The position numbers and the translations under genes were made by a program. 21,701 bases of DNA, taken from positions 1 through 21,701 of the IMG/VR virus record IMGVR_UViG_2671180921_000015. One strand, 5' to 3'. The notes under the pieces are model-generated. The model searched no databases. It saw only the letters and a program-made list of their open reading frames with translations, and was not told the origin of the DNA. This DNA is from a virus (taxonomy: Duplodnaviria; Heunggongvirae; Uroviricota; Caudoviricetes). Of the stretch, positions 10,991 through 19,599 are shown one piece after another (positions within the stretch are counted from its first letter, which is position 1; every line of letters starts with the position of its first letter).

Positions 10991-11356
10991 ATGATGAGTA
11001 AGAACGCGTTAGCGGGCACCTGTACCGTGACGATTGACGGCGTGTCGGTCAATGTGGCCGGGACGTTCAGATATTCCGTGGGTGAAATCGAGCGTGAAAC
11101 GCTCACGGGAATGAGCGGCATACATGGCTTTAAGGAGTCGTACAAAGCGCCGTTTATCGAGATGACGGTACGTGATTCCGGCTCACTGTCACTGAAGGAT
11201 TTTGCGGCATATACGGATGTGACGGTGGCGGCTTATCTGGTGAACGGCAAGACCATTCTCGGCCAGAACATGTGGCTGGTTGGCCGGATTGAGACAGACA
11301 ACAACGATGCAACCTTTACGGCCCGTTTTGAAGGGCAAACGGTGTCGGAGAGCTGA
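10991..11356 (+). CDS. Tail tube protein (Mu gpM-like)
   Basis: 121 aa. Size and position directly after the sheath gene and before the frameshifted chaperone pair; RBS GGGAG at 10982-10986. Confidence 0.75.
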   Translation: MMSKNALAGTCTVTIDGVSVNVAGTFRYSVGEIERETLTGMSGIHGFKESYKAPFIEMTVRDSGSLSLKDFAAYTDVTVAAYLVNGKTILGQNMWLVGRIETDNNDATFTARFEGQTVSES

Positions 11357-11637
11357 TGATGAATGAGAAACAGACAGAAGAACTGGTGGTGACCCTGAAA
11401 CGTCCGGTAAGGGATCCGGATACCAGGACGGAGTTCCGTGAGCTGCGCCTGAAAGAGCCGGTGCTGTTCCAGGCGGAGGACTTTCACCGCAATACCGCCT
11501 CACTGGGCGCAATGGCGGCCATGCGTGAGCTGATTGCGGCAGTGGCGGGTGTGCCGTCTGCCCCGCTGAAGTTCATGGCGGTGTCCGATTACAAAAAGTG
11601 CGAACGGTTCCTGACGGGTTTTTTCCTGGAAGCCTGA
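11356..11637 (+). CDS. Tail assembly chaperone (short, in-frame product; lambda G / P2 E analogue)
   Basis: 93 aa, start overlapping the tube stop (TGATG). Lies immediately upstream of the tape measure gene and ends just after a TTTTTTC slippery heptamer. Confidence 0.75.
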   Translation: MMNEKQTEELVVTLKRPVRDPDTRTEFRELRLKEPVLFQAEDFHRNTASLGAMAAMRELIAAVAGVPSAPLKFMAVSDYKKCERFLTGFFLEA

Positions 11638-11783
11638 GCCAGTGGCAGGCGAGGGCGGCTGAACTGACGTGGTTCTTTCGCTGGTCCCCGCGCGAGGCGT
11701 GGGGGCTGACGTCAGGGGAAATTCTCTGGTGGGCGTCGCAGGCAGCGCGGATCAACAGACTGAGGAGTGGCGATGGCGGGTAA
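11356..11783 (+). CDS. Tail assembly chaperone, -1 frameshift fusion product (GT / E+E' analogue)
   Basis: Slippery heptamer T_TTT_TTC at 11619-11625 in the zero frame. The -1 frame is open from there to 11783 and encodes PGSLSQWQARAAELTWFFRWSPREAWGLTSGEILWWASQAARINRL, overlapping the tape measure start. No independent RBS for the -1 ORF. Confidence 0.65.
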
Positions 11784-13740
11784 TGCTTTCAATTTTGAGC
11801 TGAATGCACGGGATAACGCGAGTGCGCTTCTGCAGAGAGCCTCAGAGGCTGCCGGGTCGCTGGCGGGTAACGCAGAGCAGGCGGCCGCCTGCGTGTCGTC
11901 ACTGTGTGACGGTCTTGATGCGGTGAATGAAACGCCCCTGAGCGGGGCATCCGGTGCGGCAGATGCGCTGGGCGGGAAGATAACGCAGATCCACGACTCG
12001 GTAACGCTACTGATGAATGCGCTGCTGGCCACAGACAGTGCGGGCAAAAGGGCGCTGGGAAAGGAGAGTCAGGAGAATGCGGACAGGATGTCCGGATATT
12101 TTGAACGTCTGTCCCGGCTGGGGAAAGACACATCACAGCACTTCGGGGATATTGTGCCGCCGCTGCGCAATGTCGGGGCACTGTCATCGGAGCTGTTCAG
12201 CGCACTGGGGCGCGGAGGTCTTGTGGGGCTTACGGCTGCCGTCGGTGGTAAGGCGGTGAAGGCGGTCGTCAGTCATCTTTATGATGCCTCGAAAGCGGCA
12301 TACAGCCTGGATGTGAACGCAAGAAACGCCGGAATGAGTGTGAGTGCGTTCAGCCGGTTTGCCGGGGTGTTCCGCCTGATGGGGCTGTCGGCAGAGCAGG
12401 CGCAGGCGGAGACCGGTTCACTGTTCACGACACTGAACGATGCGCTGAACACCCGTTCACCGGAGGTGGTGGGCATACTGAACCAGTTCGGTGTGACGCT
12501 GGCGGAGAACAGCAACCACACGGTGAACCTTGAGAAAAGCACGCAGAACCTGACTGACGCCTTCGGGCGGATGAACAGCTCATCGCAGAAGGTGGTGGCG
12601 GACGCACTGGGGCTGTCAGATGCACAACTGGCGCTGCTGCGGGGAACAAAAAACCTGAATGCGGCGCTGGCGGAGTCCGATCGCCTGAAACTGACGATGC
12701 CGGACAGCCTGAACGCAAAGCTGGTTCAGGCGAACAGCAACCTGAACCTTCTGTCTGCTGCGTGGGACGGCTTCACTGACAGAGTGAAGGCGAAAGTGCT
12801 GGGCAGTGATGCCGTCACCGCCTCTGTTGACTGGGCGGTTGACGTCATGAGCGACAGGCGCAGCAGCCAGCAGAAAACGGGTGATCATCTGTCAGAGCTG
12901 CGCAGTTATCTGTATGCGCATCCGGAGAAACTGAAGTCACTGACGTCGCGGCAGAGATACAATCTCGAAAACAATATCGCGACATCCGATCTTCTGGCGA
13001 TGCACACGCGTCTGTCCGGTCAGCGGTCCGACAGGCTGAATGCGCTCACGGCAACGCTCAGCAACGACCTTGCAGCGGCGCTGTCGGCACCGTCACAGGC
13101 GATATCACAACCGCCCTCATCATCACAGCAAGGTGGTACAGGTCGCAACGACATCACCCCTGAACTGCTGGCGCATTTTGCGGCGCTGGAGAAGCAGTAC
13201 AACCTTCCGGCAAACACGCTGTACGGTCTGGCCATGACGGAGTCGTCGGGACGGGCGGATGCGGTCGGGCCGCTCACCCGTTACGGTGCGGCAAAGGGGA
13301 TGTTTCAGTTCATCGACCCGACGGCGCGGGAGTTCGGGCTTTCCGGCATGGATGTGTTTAACCCTTACCGGGCCTCGGAGGCGGCGGCCAGAAAACTGGC
13401 GGGGCTGATGGCGCAGTATGGTGGTGACATGCAGCGCGCCTTTCAGGCGTACAACTGGGGCGAAGGCAACATGAGTGCCTGGCTTCGCGGACATAAGGGG
13501 ATGCCGCAGGAGACGCAGGCCTACGCGCCGAAGGTACTCAGGCACATGTCACAGATATCCGGCGGCAGCATCATCACGCCGCAGTCCGGCAGTTCAGTGG
13601 CAGACGTGCGGGATGAAATCAGTCGCGGTTTCAGCGAAAACAAAATCCGGCTGGACATTAACGTCACCAACACGACCACGGGGCAGACAACCCGCCGGAC
13701 GGTGAAGGGAGGCGCGGTGTCCACGGCGATGGATGTGTGA
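11773..13740 (+). CDS. Tail tape measure protein with C-terminal lytic transglycosylase (SLT) domain
   Basis: About 655 aa, Ala/Leu-rich and helical in composition. ATG 11773 preceded by GAGGAG (11762-11767). C-terminal region carries SLT-type motifs: AMTESSG (catalytic Glu-Ser), GMFQF, AYNWGEGN. Confidence 0.85.
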   Translation: MAGNAFNFELNARDNASALLQRASEAAGSLAGNAEQAAACVSSLCDGLDAVNETPLSGASGAADALGGKITQIHDSVTLLMNALLATDSAGKRALGKESQENADRMSGYFERLSRLGKDTSQHFGDIVPPLRNVGALSSELFSALGRGGLVGLTAAVGGKAVKAVVSHLYDASKAAYSLDVNARNAGMSVSAFSRFAGVFRLMGLSAEQAQAETGSLFTTLNDALNTRSPEVVGILNQFGVTLAENSNHTVNLEKSTQNLTDAFGRMNSSSQKVVADALGLSDAQLALLRGTKNLNAALAESDRLKLTMPDSLNAKLVQANSNLNLLSAAWDGFTDRVKAKVLGSDAVTASVDWAVDVMSDRRSSQQKTGDHLSELRSYLYAHPEKLKSLTSRQRYNLENNIATSDLLAMHTRLSGQRSDRLNALTATLSNDLAAALSAPSQAISQPPSSSQQGGTGRNDITPELLAHFAALEKQYNLPANTLYGLAMTESSGRADAVGPLTRYGAAKGMFQFIDPTAREFGLSGMDVFNPYRASEAAARKLAGLMAQYGGDMQRAFQAYNWGEGNMSAWLRGHKGMPQETQAYAPKVLRHMSQISGGSIITPQSGSSVADVRDEISRGFSENKIRLDINVTNTTTGQTTRRTVKGGAVSTAMDV

Positions 13741-13750
13741 GGAGCAGAAG

Positions 13751-15163
13751 GTGGGCATTATCACAGACGCGGTGGCGGACACGCTGGGGCTGTCTTCCAC
13801 CGGCGGGTGGGACTGGCAGTCGCATATTAATCAGGCGTCCTTCCGCGGTGTGCCGTTTGGCGTCATCAGCGGTGAGAGCGTGGTGGGCCGCCGGGTGGCG
13901 GTACATGAATATCCGTACCGGGATACGGTGTGGGTGGAAGACCTGGGACGCAGCGCCCGGAAGTTCACGCTGCGTGGGTTCCTGATACAGGACAGTCTGG
14001 TGTACAGCGCCGGAGATGTGTTCAGCCAGCGTGACGCGATGATTGCGGCCTGCGAGACATCCGGTGGTGGTCTGCTGGTGCATCCGACGCTGGGTGAGAT
14101 GACGGTTTACGTGCCGGACGGCGGTCTGCGCATTGAGGAGGGGGTGGAGTCCGGGCGTGTGTTTTCGTTCATGCTGACCGTCATTGAGTCAGGTGAAAAA
14201 GCGTTTTCACTGGTGACGGGGACAAGCTCCACGTCATCGGAGACGTGGTATCAGACGCTGACCACAACGGCCGCCGTGATGCTGGCGGCGATTACCGGTG
14301 AGATGAACAGTGTCACCGGGGCGGTTAAGACGATAAAGAGCACGGTGAGCGCGTGGGAGACGATATTTTCGCGGGCGGTGACATCGGTGACCAGTATGAC
14401 CAGCACGGTGTCGTCCCTGTTTTCTCCGGACAGCTACGGGCGTTACTGCACAGCCAGTGACAGCGGGACCGCATCAGGCAGCACGGCCTCGTCACTTTCC
14501 ACGTGGCTTGCCACCACGGAGGCGGATGATGACAGCATTCTGGAAACCATTCAGGCCTGCTCCGTGCGGGACCGGTCGGCGGCGGAATCGGCGATAGCGG
14601 CGCTGGATGACATCTCGTCCGTATCCGGTGCTGTGTCCGCGATACAGGCGGTCATCACCACGCTGGCGGAGGCCACGGGCAGTGACACGGAGAAAATCCG
14701 CGTCATGGCAGAGATTGCGTCGGCGGAAGACGGGACGTATTACGAAGGGGAGACGGCCTGCGCCATCAGTGCATCCGTGCAGGCCTTCATCCGCACCCTG
14801 GGCGCCGGTGCGATGCTGTGGCGACTGATGCAGTACACCCCTCAGGGTTACGATGATGCGGTGTCGGTGATGCGGAAGGCCCGCACGGTGACAGAGGCGG
14901 TACTGCTTCTGCTTGCTGATGCCGGAGATGACGACAGTCACGATGCGCTGAATGCGCAGTACACGCAGTTTGTCACGCACTGGCAGACGAATTATCTGTC
15001 ACAACAGGACGTGATGAAGGTGACCAGCCGCTCACCGCAGCCGTCGCTGGCGCTGGCAAACCGGCTGTATCAGGACGCCGCGCGTGCGGACGAACTGGTA
15101 CAGGCGGCCTCTCCCGTCCATCCGGCGTTCATGCCGCTTTCCTTCACAGCGAGAAACTCATGA
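13751..15163 (+). CDS. DNA circularization protein (Mu N / gp43-like)
   Basis: About 470 aa, directly after the tape measure gene as in Mu. Start placed at GTG 13751 (GAGGAG at 13739-13744, 6-nt spacer); ATG 13733 overlapping the tape measure stop is the alternative. Confidence 0.7.
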   Translation: MGIITDAVADTLGLSSTGGWDWQSHINQASFRGVPFGVISGESVVGRRVAVHEYPYRDTVWVEDLGRSARKFTLRGFLIQDSLVYSAGDVFSQRDAMIAACETSGGGLLVHPTLGEMTVYVPDGGLRIEEGVESGRVFSFMLTVIESGEKAFSLVTGTSSTSSETWYQTLTTTAAVMLAAITGEMNSVTGAVKTIKSTVSAWETIFSRAVTSVTSMTSTVSSLFSPDSYGRYCTASDSGTASGSTASSLSTWLATTEADDDSILETIQACSVRDRSAAESAIAALDDISSVSGAVSAIQAVITTLAEATGSDTEKIRVMAEIASAEDGTYYEGETACAISASVQAFIRTLGAGAMLWRLMQYTPQGYDDAVSVMRKARTVTEAVLLLLADAGDDDSHDALNAQYTQFVTHWQTNYLSQQDVMKVTSRSPQPSLALANRLYQDAARADELVQAASPVHPAFMPLSFTARNS

Positions 15164-16248
15164 GTACAACCACAGACGACACCCTGACACTGAAGGTAAA
15201 CAACACCGTCATGTCGGGGTGGAATGATATCCGGGTGACGCGGGGCGTAGAGCGTCTGCCGTCGGATTTTGAGCTTTCGCTCACGGACTGGTATCCGCAG
15301 GAAGGATACCAGCTTGCCCCGCCGGGGAGCAGCTGCACGATAACCATCGGCGACGACCGGGTGATGACCGGCTATGTCGACCAGTGGGTGAACACCCTGA
15401 CGCCGCAGTCGCATGACATCCGGGTGACGGGCAGGGGGATGTGTCAGGACCTGGTGGACTGCTCCGCCTGGTGGGAGAACAACATGATAAAGGGCGGTGA
15501 TGCGCTGGCCATCATCAGAAAACTGGCGTCGGTGTACGGCATCACGGTGACGACAGACGTCGACAGTTTCACCACGGTGCCGGATTTTGTCATCAACTGG
15601 GGAGAGTCGTCGCAGCAAATCATCGACCGCATCTGCCGGTATGAGGGGCTTCTGTATTACGACCTGCCGGATGGCAGCCTGTTCCTGACGCGTGCGGGAA
15701 CGGCGTCGGCAGCCAGCGGGGTGACACAGGGGGTGAACCTGCAGAAGGCGGAGTACACACGAAGTATGAATGAACGGTTTTCGGAATACACCGGCCTGTC
15801 GGTGTCAGTGAACAGTATCAGCGAACTGTCGCCGGCATCCGGTTATGACAGCGTGATGCTGGCAACAGCCAGCGACCCGGAAGCGGCCGGTATGCGCACC
15901 CGCCGTCACGTCACGATAGTGGAGAGTACGCTGATGACAACGGGGTGTGCACAGCAGGCGGTGAACTGGGAAATGAACCGGCGCTACGGGCGTTCAATGG
16001 CCCTGAATGTGACGGTGGACAGCTGGCGTGACAGTGCAGGGGTGCTGTGGCAGCCCAACACCTTTGTGCCGGTGAGCATACCGGCACTGGGGGCGGACAG
16101 TCTGAACTGGCTGGTTTCTGAGGTGACATTCAGTCGTGACGATGAGACGGGGACCACGGCATCGCTGGTTCTGATGCCGCCGGAAGCGTTCAGCGTGCAG
16201 CCGTACCGTTTTTATTCCGGCGTGGCCGGAAGGGATGTGTCGTCATGA
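15160..16248 (+). CDS. Baseplate hub protein (Mu P / gp44-like, P2 gpD-like)
   Basis: 362 aa with ATGA overlap with N. Size and order (N, then P, then spike) match the Mu tail module. Confidence 0.7.
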   Translation: MSTTTDDTLTLKVNNTVMSGWNDIRVTRGVERLPSDFELSLTDWYPQEGYQLAPPGSSCTITIGDDRVMTGYVDQWVNTLTPQSHDIRVTGRGMCQDLVDCSAWWENNMIKGGDALAIIRKLASVYGITVTTDVDSFTTVPDFVINWGESSQQIIDRICRYEGLLYYDLPDGSLFLTRAGTASAASGVTQGVNLQKAEYTRSMNERFSEYTGLSVSVNSISELSPASGYDSVMLATASDPEAAGMRTRRHVTIVESTLMTTGCAQQAVNWEMNRRYGRSMALNVTVDSWRDSAGVLWQPNTFVPVSIPALGADSLNWLVSEVTFSRDDETGTTASLVLMPPEAFSVQPYRFYSGVAGRDVSS

Positions 16249-16826
16249 ATCCTGTACAGGTGCTTTTCCGCCGTCTGGTATCACTGCTGAGCGTGGGGCG
16301 CGTGACGGCGGGGGATGACAGCGGTGTGGTGCAGACCGTGCAGGTGCAGAGTCCGTCAGAGGTGCGCAGCGACACGCCGGTTCTTCAGCAGTTTGGATTT
16401 TCCTCAGTGCTGCCTGCCGGAACGGATGTGGTGGTAATGAGCCTTGCCGGAAACCGCAGCAGCGCGGTGGTGGTGGCGTCCGGGCATCAGTCATACCGGA
16501 TTAACGGTCTGAACAGCGGCGAGGTGGTGGTGTACAACCAGTGGGGGCAGTACGTCCGGCTGGGTGAGGATGGGATTGTGGTGGAGGCGTCAGGGCAGCA
16601 GGTGTTGGTGAACAGTGCCACCACGCTTGAGGTGACGGCGACGGACGGGGTCACCCTGAAAACGCCGTCGCTGAAGGTGACGGGGGATATCACGGACAAC
16701 TGCGAAAGCAACAGCACCACGCTGAAGGCGCTGCGGGAGGCATACAACGACCACACACATCCGGTCAGCGGTGTGGAAAGTGGCGGCAGCACGGTGACAA
16801 GTCAGGCAACCACGGAGACGGTGTGA
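16245..16826 (+). CDS. Baseplate central spike / assembly protein V (Mu gp45-like)
   Basis: 193 aa with ATGA overlap. Gly/Val-rich beta-type sequence with a C-terminal HxH motif (YNDHTHPVSG), as I recall for gp45/gpV-type spikes. Confidence 0.7.
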   Translation: MNPVQVLFRRLVSLLSVGRVTAGDDSGVVQTVQVQSPSEVRSDTPVLQQFGFSSVLPAGTDVVVMSLAGNRSSAVVVASGHQSYRINGLNSGEVVVYNQWGQYVRLGEDGIVVEASGQQVLVNSATTLEVTATDGVTLKTPSLKVTGDITDNCESNSTTLKALREAYNDHTHPVSGVESGGSTVTSQATTETV

Positions 16827-17266: not shown

Positions 17267-18421
17267 ATGCCGTTTGAACGCCCCGGATTAAGTGAGCTGC
17301 GGGAGAAAAGCCGGTCGTATGTGACCGGTCAGCTGGATGAGGCGGGGGCTTTGCTGCGGTTTTCCACGCCGGGGATTCTGGCGGATGCCGTGGCGGGCAT
17401 GACACATCTGCATTACGGCTATCTTGACTGGATAGCGCAGCAGTGCACACCGGCCACGGCCACCGGGGAATATCTGGCGGCGTGGGGCGCGCTGAAGGGT
17501 ATCATCCGCAAGGCCGCAGAGGCCGCGGCCTGTGACGAGGTGCAGTTCACGGGAACCGTCGGCAGCACCGTGAGTGCGGGGGCGGTACTGAACCGTGCGG
17601 ACGGGTATCAGTACACGCTGGATGAGGATGTGAGCATTGACAGTGACGGCAGCGGTTCAGGGAGTATTACCGCCGTGCTGCCGGACCCGACGGATGACAG
17701 CAGCGGCGGTGGCGACGACGGTAACGCGGATGCCGGTACGACACTGACACCGGATGTCACCTGGTCCGGTATTGACTCAACGGTGACGATGGTGACGGCT
17801 GCCACCGGCGGCAGTGACACTGAGGAAGAGGAGACGTACCGTCAGCGTGTGCTGTATGCGTACCAGAACCCGCCTCAGGGCGGTGCGGCGGCGGACTATG
17901 TGCAGTGGGCACTGGAGGTTCCCGGCGTGACCCGGGCGTGGTGCGTGAACCGTGCGCTGGGGTTCGGAACGGTGGGTGTCTACATCATGACGGACGGTGA
18001 CGACGAGGACAACGCCGGGGGCTTTCCTGACGGCACGGACGGCGTGGCAACGGATGAGGACTGGACAGACCGGAAAGCCACGGGGGTACAGTTCACGGTG
18101 GCGGACTATATCCGCGATTACCAGCCGGTCACGGCGGTGGTGTATGTGATGTCGCCGGTGGCCAGAAGCATTGATTTTGAAATACAGGGGCTGAGTGATG
18201 CCACGGCGGCACTGAGGGCACAGGTGGAGAGCGCCATCAGCGAGGTGCTGTACAACGTGGATGAACTGGACGGCAGCGGGGTGATTAATCTTTCTGACCT
18301 GTATTACGCCATTGCGGACATTGAGGGGACAGACGGCTTCATTCTGGTGTCTCCTGACAGCAACATCACGCTGTCGCAGGGAGAGCTGCCGGTCACCGGA
18401 AGTATCACATGGGCAACATGA
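17267..18421 (+). CDS. Baseplate J-like protein (Mu gp47-like)
   Basis: About 384 aa from ATG 17267, preceded by GGGAGG (17255-17260). Size and position match baseplate J. Contains an acidic Gly/Asp-rich insertion (DDSSGGGDDGNADAG). Confidence 0.75.
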   Translation: MPFERPGLSELREKSRSYVTGQLDEAGALLRFSTPGILADAVAGMTHLHYGYLDWIAQQCTPATATGEYLAAWGALKGIIRKAAEAAACDEVQFTGTVGSTVSAGAVLNRADGYQYTLDEDVSIDSDGSGSGSITAVLPDPTDDSSGGGDDGNADAGTTLTPDVTWSGIDSTVTMVTAATGGSDTEEEETYRQRVLYAYQNPPQGGAAADYVQWALEVPGVTRAWCVNRALGFGTVGVYIMTDGDDEDNAGGFPDGTDGVATDEDWTDRKATGVQFTVADYIRDYQPVTAVVYVMSPVARSIDFEIQGLSDATAALRAQVESAISEVLYNVDELDGSGVINLSDLYYAIADIEGTDGFILVSPDSNITLSQGELPVTGSITWAT

Positions 18422-18429
18422 GGAAAATC

Positions 18430-19599
18430 ATGAGTCGTTTTTCACATGATGACTACACGTGCGCGATGGTGAATCTTCTGCCATCGGGGATGGCGTGGAA
18501 CCGGCTGCCTGACAGCGTGCAGTACAGGCTGATACGCGGGCTGGCGCAGGCGTATCAGCAGAGTGACGCTGATGCGTGTGCACTGATAACAGGGGCCTTC
18601 CCGGAAACGGCGGATGCGCTCACTGATGAGTGGTATGCCTCGCTGGGGCTGAATGATGAATGCGGAACGCAGGTATCCACCACAGACCTGGCGCAGGCCA
18701 GAAAATTCATTCTGGCGAAACTGCTGTCGACGGGCGGGCAGAGCGTGGCGTATTTCACGGAGCTGGCGGCGACGATGGGCTACAGCATCCGTATCCGTGA
18801 GTACCGCACACCGCTGTGCGGGTTTTCGTGGTGCGGGCACCTGCTGAGTGATGACAACCGGTTCAACTGGACCGTGGTGGTGGCCCCGCCGGGGGATGAC
18901 GTGACCACCTCACGGGCGTACCTGGAATGCCTGTTTCGTCGTTATGCCCCGGCACAGACGCTGGTGACGTTTGAGTGGCAGTCGTCATACAGCGCCGTCC
19001 TGAGTATGGCGTGGGACAACAGCACGCGCCTTCTTTCTGGTGCACTGATGGCGGATGAGGGTGTGGTGGTGTCGGGCGTGACTGTGAATGTCGTCATCAA
19101 ATCCATGTCGGGACAGCGGTATGTGGCGACGGTGTCCACAGACAGTGACGGGGGCTGGTCGTTTGAAGCGGATGATGAAACCTTCACAAATGGCAGTTAC
19201 ACGGTTTATGCGCAGGCGGACGTGGATATGCCGGATGATGTCACGGTGCCTGTACGAAGCGCGTTACTGAATGTACGGGTACAGACACAGGGTGAGGGGG
19301 ACAACGGTGATGATGAGCCGGCATCTGACGACACGACGCAGGAGCCGCTGGTCATTAACAGGGTGATGCTTCAGTCGGGGCGCACGACGCAGGAGCCGCT
19401 TGTCATTAACAGGGTGATGCTTCAGTCGGGGCGCATGACGCAGGAGCCGCTTGTCATTAACAGGGTGATGCTTCAGTCGGGGCGCATGACGCAGGAGCCG
19501 CTTGTCATTAACAGTGCGATGCTTCAGTCGGGATATCTGACGCAGGAGCCAGTGGTCATTAACAGGCTCTGGCTGAATTTTGCCGTCACTAATGAGTGA
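18430..19599 (+). CDS. Baseplate/tail protein, Mu gp48 / YmfQ (DUF2313)-like, with C-terminal Ig-like domain and 17-aa tandem repeats
   Basis: N-terminal roughly 190 aa sits in the gp48 position after the J-like gene. Start is ATG 18430 (GAGGA at 18420-18424), with 18409 or 18418 as alternatives. C-terminal extension holds a beta-rich Ig-like segment (GVTVNVVIKSMSGQRYVATVSTDSDGGWSFEADDETFTNGSYTVYAQA) and then 4.7 copies of TQEPLVINRVMLQSGRM. Confidence 0.7.
   Translation: MSRFSHDDYTCAMVNLLPSGMAWNRLPDSVQYRLIRGLAQAYQQSDADACALITGAFPETADALTDEWYASLGLNDECGTQVSTTDLAQARKFILAKLLSTGGQSVAYFTELAATMGYSIRIREYRTPLCGFSWCGHLLSDDNRFNWTVVVAPPGDDVTTSRAYLECLFRRYAPAQTLVTFEWQSSYSAVLSMAWDNSTRLLSGALMADEGVVVSGVTVNVVIKSMSGQRYVATVSTDSDGGWSFEADDETFTNGSYTVYAQADVDMPDDVTVPVRSALLNVRVQTQGEGDNGDDEPASDDTTQEPLVINRVMLQSGRTTQEPLVINRVMLQSGRMTQEPLVINRVMLQSGRMTQEPLVINSAMLQSGYLTQEPVVINRLWLNFAVTNE
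19336..19575 (+). repeat. 51-bp direct tandem repeat (about 4.7 copies) in the 3' end of the gp48-like gene
   Basis: acgcaggagccgct(g/t)gtcattaacagggtgatgcttcagtcggggcgca(c/t)g repeated head-to-tail from 19336; copies 2 and 3 are nearly identical, copies 4 and 5 diverged. In frame, encoding 17-aa units. Confidence 0.85.

Follow-up and report, generated by a model that had tools for sequence, protein, structure and literature searches.

We analyzed a window of 21,701 nucleotides (positions 1 to 21,701 of the IMG/VR virus record IMGVR_UViG_2671180921_000015, Caudoviricetes), in which the gene at 11773-13740 encodes a 655-residue protein carrying an SLT lytic transglycosylase domain. Our reading, to which we give a probability of roughly 80%, is that this gene product is the tape measure protein (TMP) of a temperate myovirus of E. 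coli whose head is lambda-like and whose contractile tail is of the Mu type, that it consists of a ruler, the SLT domain and a C-terminal anchor, and that it would cut the cell wall locally as the phage enters. The reading is directly supported by domain identity, conservation of the catalytic residue, fold, gene context and the modular slot that holds the domain. The tape measure gene, its parts and its neighbors within 11356-16826 lie on the plus strand, and coordinates are those of the window.

The SLT domain (GH23 family 1) occupies a muralytic cassette at 13125-13570, within which residues 472-578 (13180-13500) matched Pfam SLT (PF01464) with E = 2.1e-18 and 66.4 bits against a cut-off of 21.3. 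A sequence-only reading of the window had proposed this profile search after noticing three SLT signature blocks in the protein; all three were located, in agreement with the Pfam match and the fold model. TESSG lies at 13237-13251 and contains, within MTESSG, the predicted catalytic glutamate, encoded by the GAG codon at 13240-13242 (Glu490 counted from the ATG start, Glu492 from an in-frame GTG). GMFQF (motif II, 13297-13311) and AYNWGEGN (motif III, 13447-13470) correspond to the G-x-x-Q and A-Y-N-x-G motifs of the SLT family, with the G and Q of the former and the Y and N-x-G of the latter conserved in alignments. The catalytic glutamate was invariant in 13 homologues from E. coli and Yersinia, down to ~33% identity, and nearly invariant (at least 90%) in a 27-sequence alignment reaching down to ~22% identity. 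A search of PDB sequences with a profile made from this TMP family's own SLT domains recovered gp41 of phage Pa193 as the best match (2.2e-22), together with MltD, P. aeruginosa Slt, T7 gp16 (8e-19) and E. coli Slt70 (1.5e-17). By residue count, the glutamate column of the family aligned with E503 of P. aeruginosa Slt, for which PDB 6fc4 is deposited as 'inactive mutant E503Q', and with E37 of T7 gp16. NCBIfam gave only weak sub-threshold matches on the TMP (MltD and a flagellar transglycosylase). AlphaFold2 (AF2) run with 13 mostly redundant sequences returned an unusable model with a predicted local distance difference test score (pLDDT) of 48.9, hence the 27-sequence alignment; with these diverse sequences the SLT domain reached pLDDT >94 over 13150-13560 and was modelled as a lysozyme-like, mostly helical fold. 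Since the sequence, motif and fold levels agree, the SLT observation is confirmed: on these comparisons the domain is genuine and its predicted catalytic residues are kept. Its placement had been given as C-terminal; the domain is indeed in that part of the protein, but its position is sub-terminal, with 59 residues following it.

Four observations of sequence and synteny identify the open reading frame (ORF) as a tape measure protein, as the sequence-only reading also had it, belonging to a contractile tail of the Mu type. First, the gene occupies the position of Mu gp42, in the order sheath, tube, chaperone, TMP, gp43, hub that matches Mu gp41-gp45. Second, the N-terminal part matched PHROG 2276 'tail length tape measure protein' (E = 1.5e-44) and shows 35% identity to the protein annotated as tmp in Citrobacter phage phiNP, with 27.5% identity to the tmp of Serratia phage BZS1; a megablast of the gene against a phage collection found no match, so that the phage similarities are at the protein level only. 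Third, a candidate frameshifted tail assembly chaperone stands directly upstream. Lastly, the tail module contains no second long ORF. Translation likely begins at ATG 11773, which is preceded by GAGGAG and is also the start in homologues and in the RefSeq copy from a 98% identical prophage of E. coli EC12, the in-frame GTG lying at 11767. The exact 655-residue protein is already in NCBI under the name 'lytic transglycosylase domain-containing protein'. This RefSeq name, which mentions nothing else, and the lack of any Pfam TMP family above threshold on the full protein would suit a separate tail-associated lysin, with tail length set by some other protein. The four observations above speak against that explanation, as does a length close to the 690 residues of Mu gp42, and we regard it as exceedingly improbable.

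The modular nature of the SLT domain became apparent on comparison with a sibling E. coli prophage (P0020; loci L007 and L008) whose gene context equals that of the window. The two TMPs share 94% amino acid identity over residues 1-455 and 53 of 55 residues at the C-terminus, while the ~145 residues between are unrelated. The boundaries are sharp in the DNA as well: identity between the window and L007 (gene 6001-7956) was 90-100% up to ~13120, 32-48% across ~13125-13570 and 97-98% from 13573 on. The N-terminal ruler part (11773-13124) is thus common to relatives with other cassettes. The sibling cassette had no Pfam match; it is of the Enc34 type (PHA02564), matching the Enc34 endolysin's catalytic domain (PDB 7Q47, E = 2.1e-29) and Gp29 of PDB 9VVP (E = 2.5e-36), and a literature search for the paper behind the latter entry returned nothing relevant. 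The TMP of BZS1 likewise resembles that of the window in ruler, C-terminal tail and gene context but differs in having an Enc34-type domain in the slot. The Enc34 domain is muralytic by experiment, and its authors proposed a glucosaminidase with a catalytic glutamate (PMC8943055); the motif containing this glutamate was invariant in our alignment. Because profile-profile comparison found no relationship between the Enc34-type and SLT cassettes (probability 1.5%), the possibility that they are diverged versions of one another is ruled out at the sequence level.

The SLT domain is an exchangeable cassette (about 13125-13570) in a slot of the TMP. A further idea is that this ~445-nt segment is hot-swappable, the ruler and anchor flanks acting as recombination arms, and that the exchange of chemically different enzymes is adaptive; we regard this as doubtful, but if it were true, cassette exchange could counter, for example, modifications of host peptidoglycan or periplasmic inhibitors of lysozyme or transglycosylase. 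The cassettes of the E. coli siblings are of similar size (148 and 144 residues), which might reflect a length limit set by the ruler function.

To see how general the arrangement is, we searched 1.84 billion 50%-identity representatives with the ruler part alone (residues 3-455), which returned 173 proteins at E <= 0.001. The slot was surveyed in the 114 full-length representatives among 150 listed of these 173 matches. It held an Enc34-type domain in 46, SLT in 20, Phage_lysozyme2 (PF18013) in 19, Hydrolase_2 in three and Peptidase_M15_4 in one; the enzymes found there thus comprise SLT transglycosylase, the proposed Enc34-type glucosaminidase, Phage_lysozyme2 and SleB-like hydrolases. A recognised peptidoglycan-degrading domain was therefore present in the sub-terminal slot of 89 of the 114 representatives (78%). 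No domain was recognised in the remaining 25, two of which look lambda-lysozyme-like by eye. In Mu gp42 itself no muralytic domain was recognised; it matches Pfam TMP_3 and has a glycine zipper. Members of this Mu-type TMP family normally have a muralytic domain ahead of the C-terminal tail, though Mu is without a recognised one, and because such a domain is the rule, the presence of SLT in the TMP of the window is not unusual.

The last ~50 of the 59 residues that follow the SLT domain form a conserved C-terminal tail (13588-13737, …IRLDINVTNTTTGQTTRRTVKGGAVSTAMDV), which was seen in 70 relatives whichever cassette they carried. The 17 C-terminal residues of Mu gp42 (674-690) bind the hub gp44 and the spike gp45 (PMC11915804), and the 19 C-terminal residues of Pa193 gp41 (840-858) bind the tail tip and hub (PMC11456595). 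By analogy with these two C-termini, the tail is probably an anchor to the baseplate hub and spike. A hidden Markov model of the family C-terminus found no match in Mu gp42, that is, no detectable similarity to the Mu C-terminus, and a tail shared with Mu gp42 was rejected on this ground.

Local digestion of the cell wall during penetration is the standard interpretation of SLT domains in tape measures. Applied to the TMP of the window, the ~450 N-terminal residues would serve as the ruler, followed by the SLT domain of ~148 residues and the tail, which would keep the TMP attached to hub and spike at the tube's distal end. Upon sheath contraction, the spike and the C-terminal end of the TMP would be the first to leave the tube and enter the periplasm, where the SLT domain would fold or refold and cut glycan strands locally, cleaving the bond between N-acetylmuramic acid and N-acetylglucosamine (MurNAc-GlcNAc) with its single catalytic glutamate. 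The local opening of the wall would then allow DNA delivery. We infer virion location, ejection, refolding, enzymatic activity and the role in infection from the literature on P1, Pa193, Mu and siphoviruses.

Three points weigh against this reading. First, three copies of a folded 15-kDa domain are unlikely to fit inside the tail tube's lumen, so that an unfolded or extended SLT domain must be assumed before ejection, a state that has been hypothesised for Pa193 (PMC11456595). Second, AF2 gave the C-terminal tail low confidence (pLDDT 40-69), and its anchor role comes by analogy only. Third, the SLT domain may be dispensable, since Mu gp42 and 25 of the 114 relatives are without a recognised muralytic domain.

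The last point leads to the most serious rival explanation, in which the domain is a competent enzyme but practically dispensable, helping only on hosts or in growth states whose peptidoglycan is thick or highly cross-linked, with most of the work left to contraction and the spike. Besides the relatives just mentioned, it draws on two studies: Moak and Molineux reportedly found in 2000 that transglycosylase mutants of T7 gp16 have conditional defects only, and Piuri and Hatfull are said to have reported the same in 2006 for a motif deletion in TM4 Tmp. The loss of such domains reportedly causes infection defects that are conditional, not absolute, and on standard hosts a catalytic mutant may seem normal. 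However, 78% of the relatives keep some muralytic domain in the slot, and this retention, together with the conservation of the catalytic glutamate across both alignments, argues for sustained selection. We consider practical dispensability a real contender that falls a little short of an even chance.

The domain might instead act at the end of the cycle, as an endolysin or lysis helper. Some phages do use SLT as endolysin, an example being phiKZ gp144, which is among the fold matches of this domain. However, the SLT domain lies within a structural tail gene, flanked by the ruler and the conserved C-terminal tail, the TMP has no signal sequence, and no holin lies nearby in the tail module. The near-identical EC12 prophage (98%) moreover encodes a lambda-family holin and a GH24 endolysin as separate genes upstream of the packaging genes, in a region that lies outside the window, so the SLT domain is not needed for lysis. 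This separate holin and GH24 cassette of the EC12 relative led us to reject SLT as the endolysin of the phage, and we consider any action at the end of the cycle, including that of a helper, very improbable.

The SLT-bearing TMP can be set beside several known systems. One is phiNP, a viable temperate myovirus (PMC6456863) that shares the order decoration protein, capsid E, DUF2635, sheath, tube, frameshifted chaperone, TMP, DNA_circ protein and hub. Its TMP (WOZ57174.1) carries SLT at residues 410-509 (Pfam E = 2.6e-26) followed by a conserved C-terminal tail, as in the window; it differs in that its SLT domain is too diverged for tblastn to join and in that ssrA, not dusA, is the integration site of the phage. 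That this gene has an SLT domain is not mentioned in the phiNP paper (PMC6456863), and its record is labelled only tape measure protein. Sit of the contractile-tailed phage P1, a structural injection transglycosylase or tape measure described as the source of tail-associated muralytic activity (PMC9024508), also has a sub-terminal SLT domain, 41% identical over residues 466-609 of the TMP, but is 1140 residues long with SLT at ~750-900, has a dissimilar ruler part and belongs to a T4-like rather than Mu-like baseplate. Pa193 gp41 (PDB 9B45), likewise from a contractile tail, carries SLT at 491-582 and is bound by its C-terminus to tail tip and hub; it differs in its length of 858 residues with ~260 after the SLT domain, its Pbunavirus baseplate and the virulent lifestyle of the phage. 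Mu gp42 holds the equivalent position in a homologous tail module, but its C-terminal part is glycine-zipper-rich. T7 gp16 was the best PDB match of the single sequence (E = 3.5e-05), its E37 aligning with the glutamate of the window, and it is a virion protein ejected at entry; it is, however, an internal core protein of a podovirus rather than a tape measure, and its SLT domain is N-terminal.

P1 Sit, Pa193 gp41, TM4 Tmp and T5 pb2 represent the tape-measure-embedded type of lysin, in which the muralytic domain lies inside the TMP polypeptide and a separate dedicated endolysin serves lysis, and both features recur here, the latter in the EC12 prophage. A review (PMC6116005) and an enterococcal survey (PMC10194240) show SLT domains to be a familiar feature of tape measures. 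The sequence-only reading had considered TMP lysins better documented for siphoviruses than for Mu-type contractile tails, and the experimental cases cited by the review, TM4, T5 and phiIPLA35 (PMC6116005), bear this out. SLT-bearing TMPs have also been described for the contractile-tailed phages P1 (Sit, PMC9024508) and Pa193 (gp41, PMC11456595). With these precedents, and with the exact protein already in NCBI under an SLT name, the feature is an ordinary, already annotated arrangement that was correctly read. What is added here is modest: the identification of the TMP, the sharp cassette boundaries with the pair of SLT and Enc34-type siblings, and the muralytic slot as a family norm. The RefSeq name, which refers to SLT only, should become Mu-type tail tape measure protein with embedded virion-associated lysin. 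Published evidence on tail-borne lysins in the entry of contractile phages is mostly bioinformatic or structural, and the E. coli sibling pair offers a convenient natural system for studying their role.

The tape measure gene has the expected neighbors. Long-tailed phages usually have a frameshifted pair of chaperones encoded upstream of the tape measure. Directly 5' of the TMP gene lies the tail assembly chaperone gene (11356-11637; 93 residues; Pfam Phage_TAC_7, E = 6.4e-07; PHROG 166), with a candidate -1 programmed frameshift site, G GGT TTT TTC, at 11616-11625, where slippery heptamers stand in frame at the 3' end of the chaperone gene and the -1 frame is open. Frameshifting there would add 52-53 residues, encoded by 11625-11783, and the extension would overlap the TMP start. 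The candidate site and extension peptide are kept in E. coli EC12, L007, phiNP (TTTTTTG) and BZS1 (TTTTTTA); the final 120 nt of the gene annotated as Mu gp41 showed no comparable in-frame heptamer. Downstream, 13733-16826 encodes a gp43-like DNA_circ_N protein (Pfam 1e-29), a gpP/gp44-like hub with GpP-like domains and a gp45-like spike (Phage_Mu_Gp45, 4e-15); in Mu, gp43 is the tube initiator. The gp43-like ORF can begin at ATG 13733, with an 8-nt overlap with the TMP stop, and the RefSeq EC12 start corresponds by coordinate offset to 13751.

Taken as a whole, the window represents the late (structural) region of a temperate phage of E. coli. The genes for its head resemble those of lambda (gpA-type large terminase, lambda-family portal, S49 protease, decoration protein D and capsid protein E), and its tail genes are Mu-like by Pfam, comprising sheath, tube, Phage_TAC_7 chaperone, DNA_circ_N (gp43-like), GpP/gp44-like hub, gp45-like spike, gp46, Baseplate_J/gp47 and a Mu gp48-like protein. 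Copies of the window at 92-98% identity and at least 87% coverage were found in 8 of 5,426 complete E. coli genomes. In the EC12 prophage (L006, NZ_CP070229.1 2528000-2562000), a tyrosine integrase adjoins dusA and the early region is lambdoid, with a Q antiterminator, Cro/CI-type and LexA-family regulators and RusA. Four tRNA genes are present in this prophage too, along with a GT9 glycosyltransferase adjoining the holin and a Panacea-domain gene near the end.

Three repeat regions were observed elsewhere in the window. At 630-780 (Tandem Repeats Finder array 684-723), five perfect tandem copies of ATGTCCCA, with extra GTCCCA/TGGGAC copies in both orientations, stand where the putative small terminase ORF begins or directly before it. 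At this position the EC12 prophage has GGTAACAG repeats instead, and the ATGTCCCA and GGTAACAG arrays may serve in recognition by the terminase and co-vary with its small subunit. At 6144-6305, a 75-nt unit is repeated 2.1 times (88% matches) within ORF 6067-6639, for which Pfam gave no match; the ORF stands between the S49 protease and the decoration protein, a place in which one might expect a scaffold-like protein. Lastly, a 51-nt unit repeated 4.5 times (92% matches) at 19335-19566 encodes a 17-residue unit, TQEPLVINRVMLQSGRM, that recurs at the C-terminus of the Mu gp48-like baseplate ORF (18409-19599), an ORF that far exceeds the ~150-position Pfam Gp48 profile.
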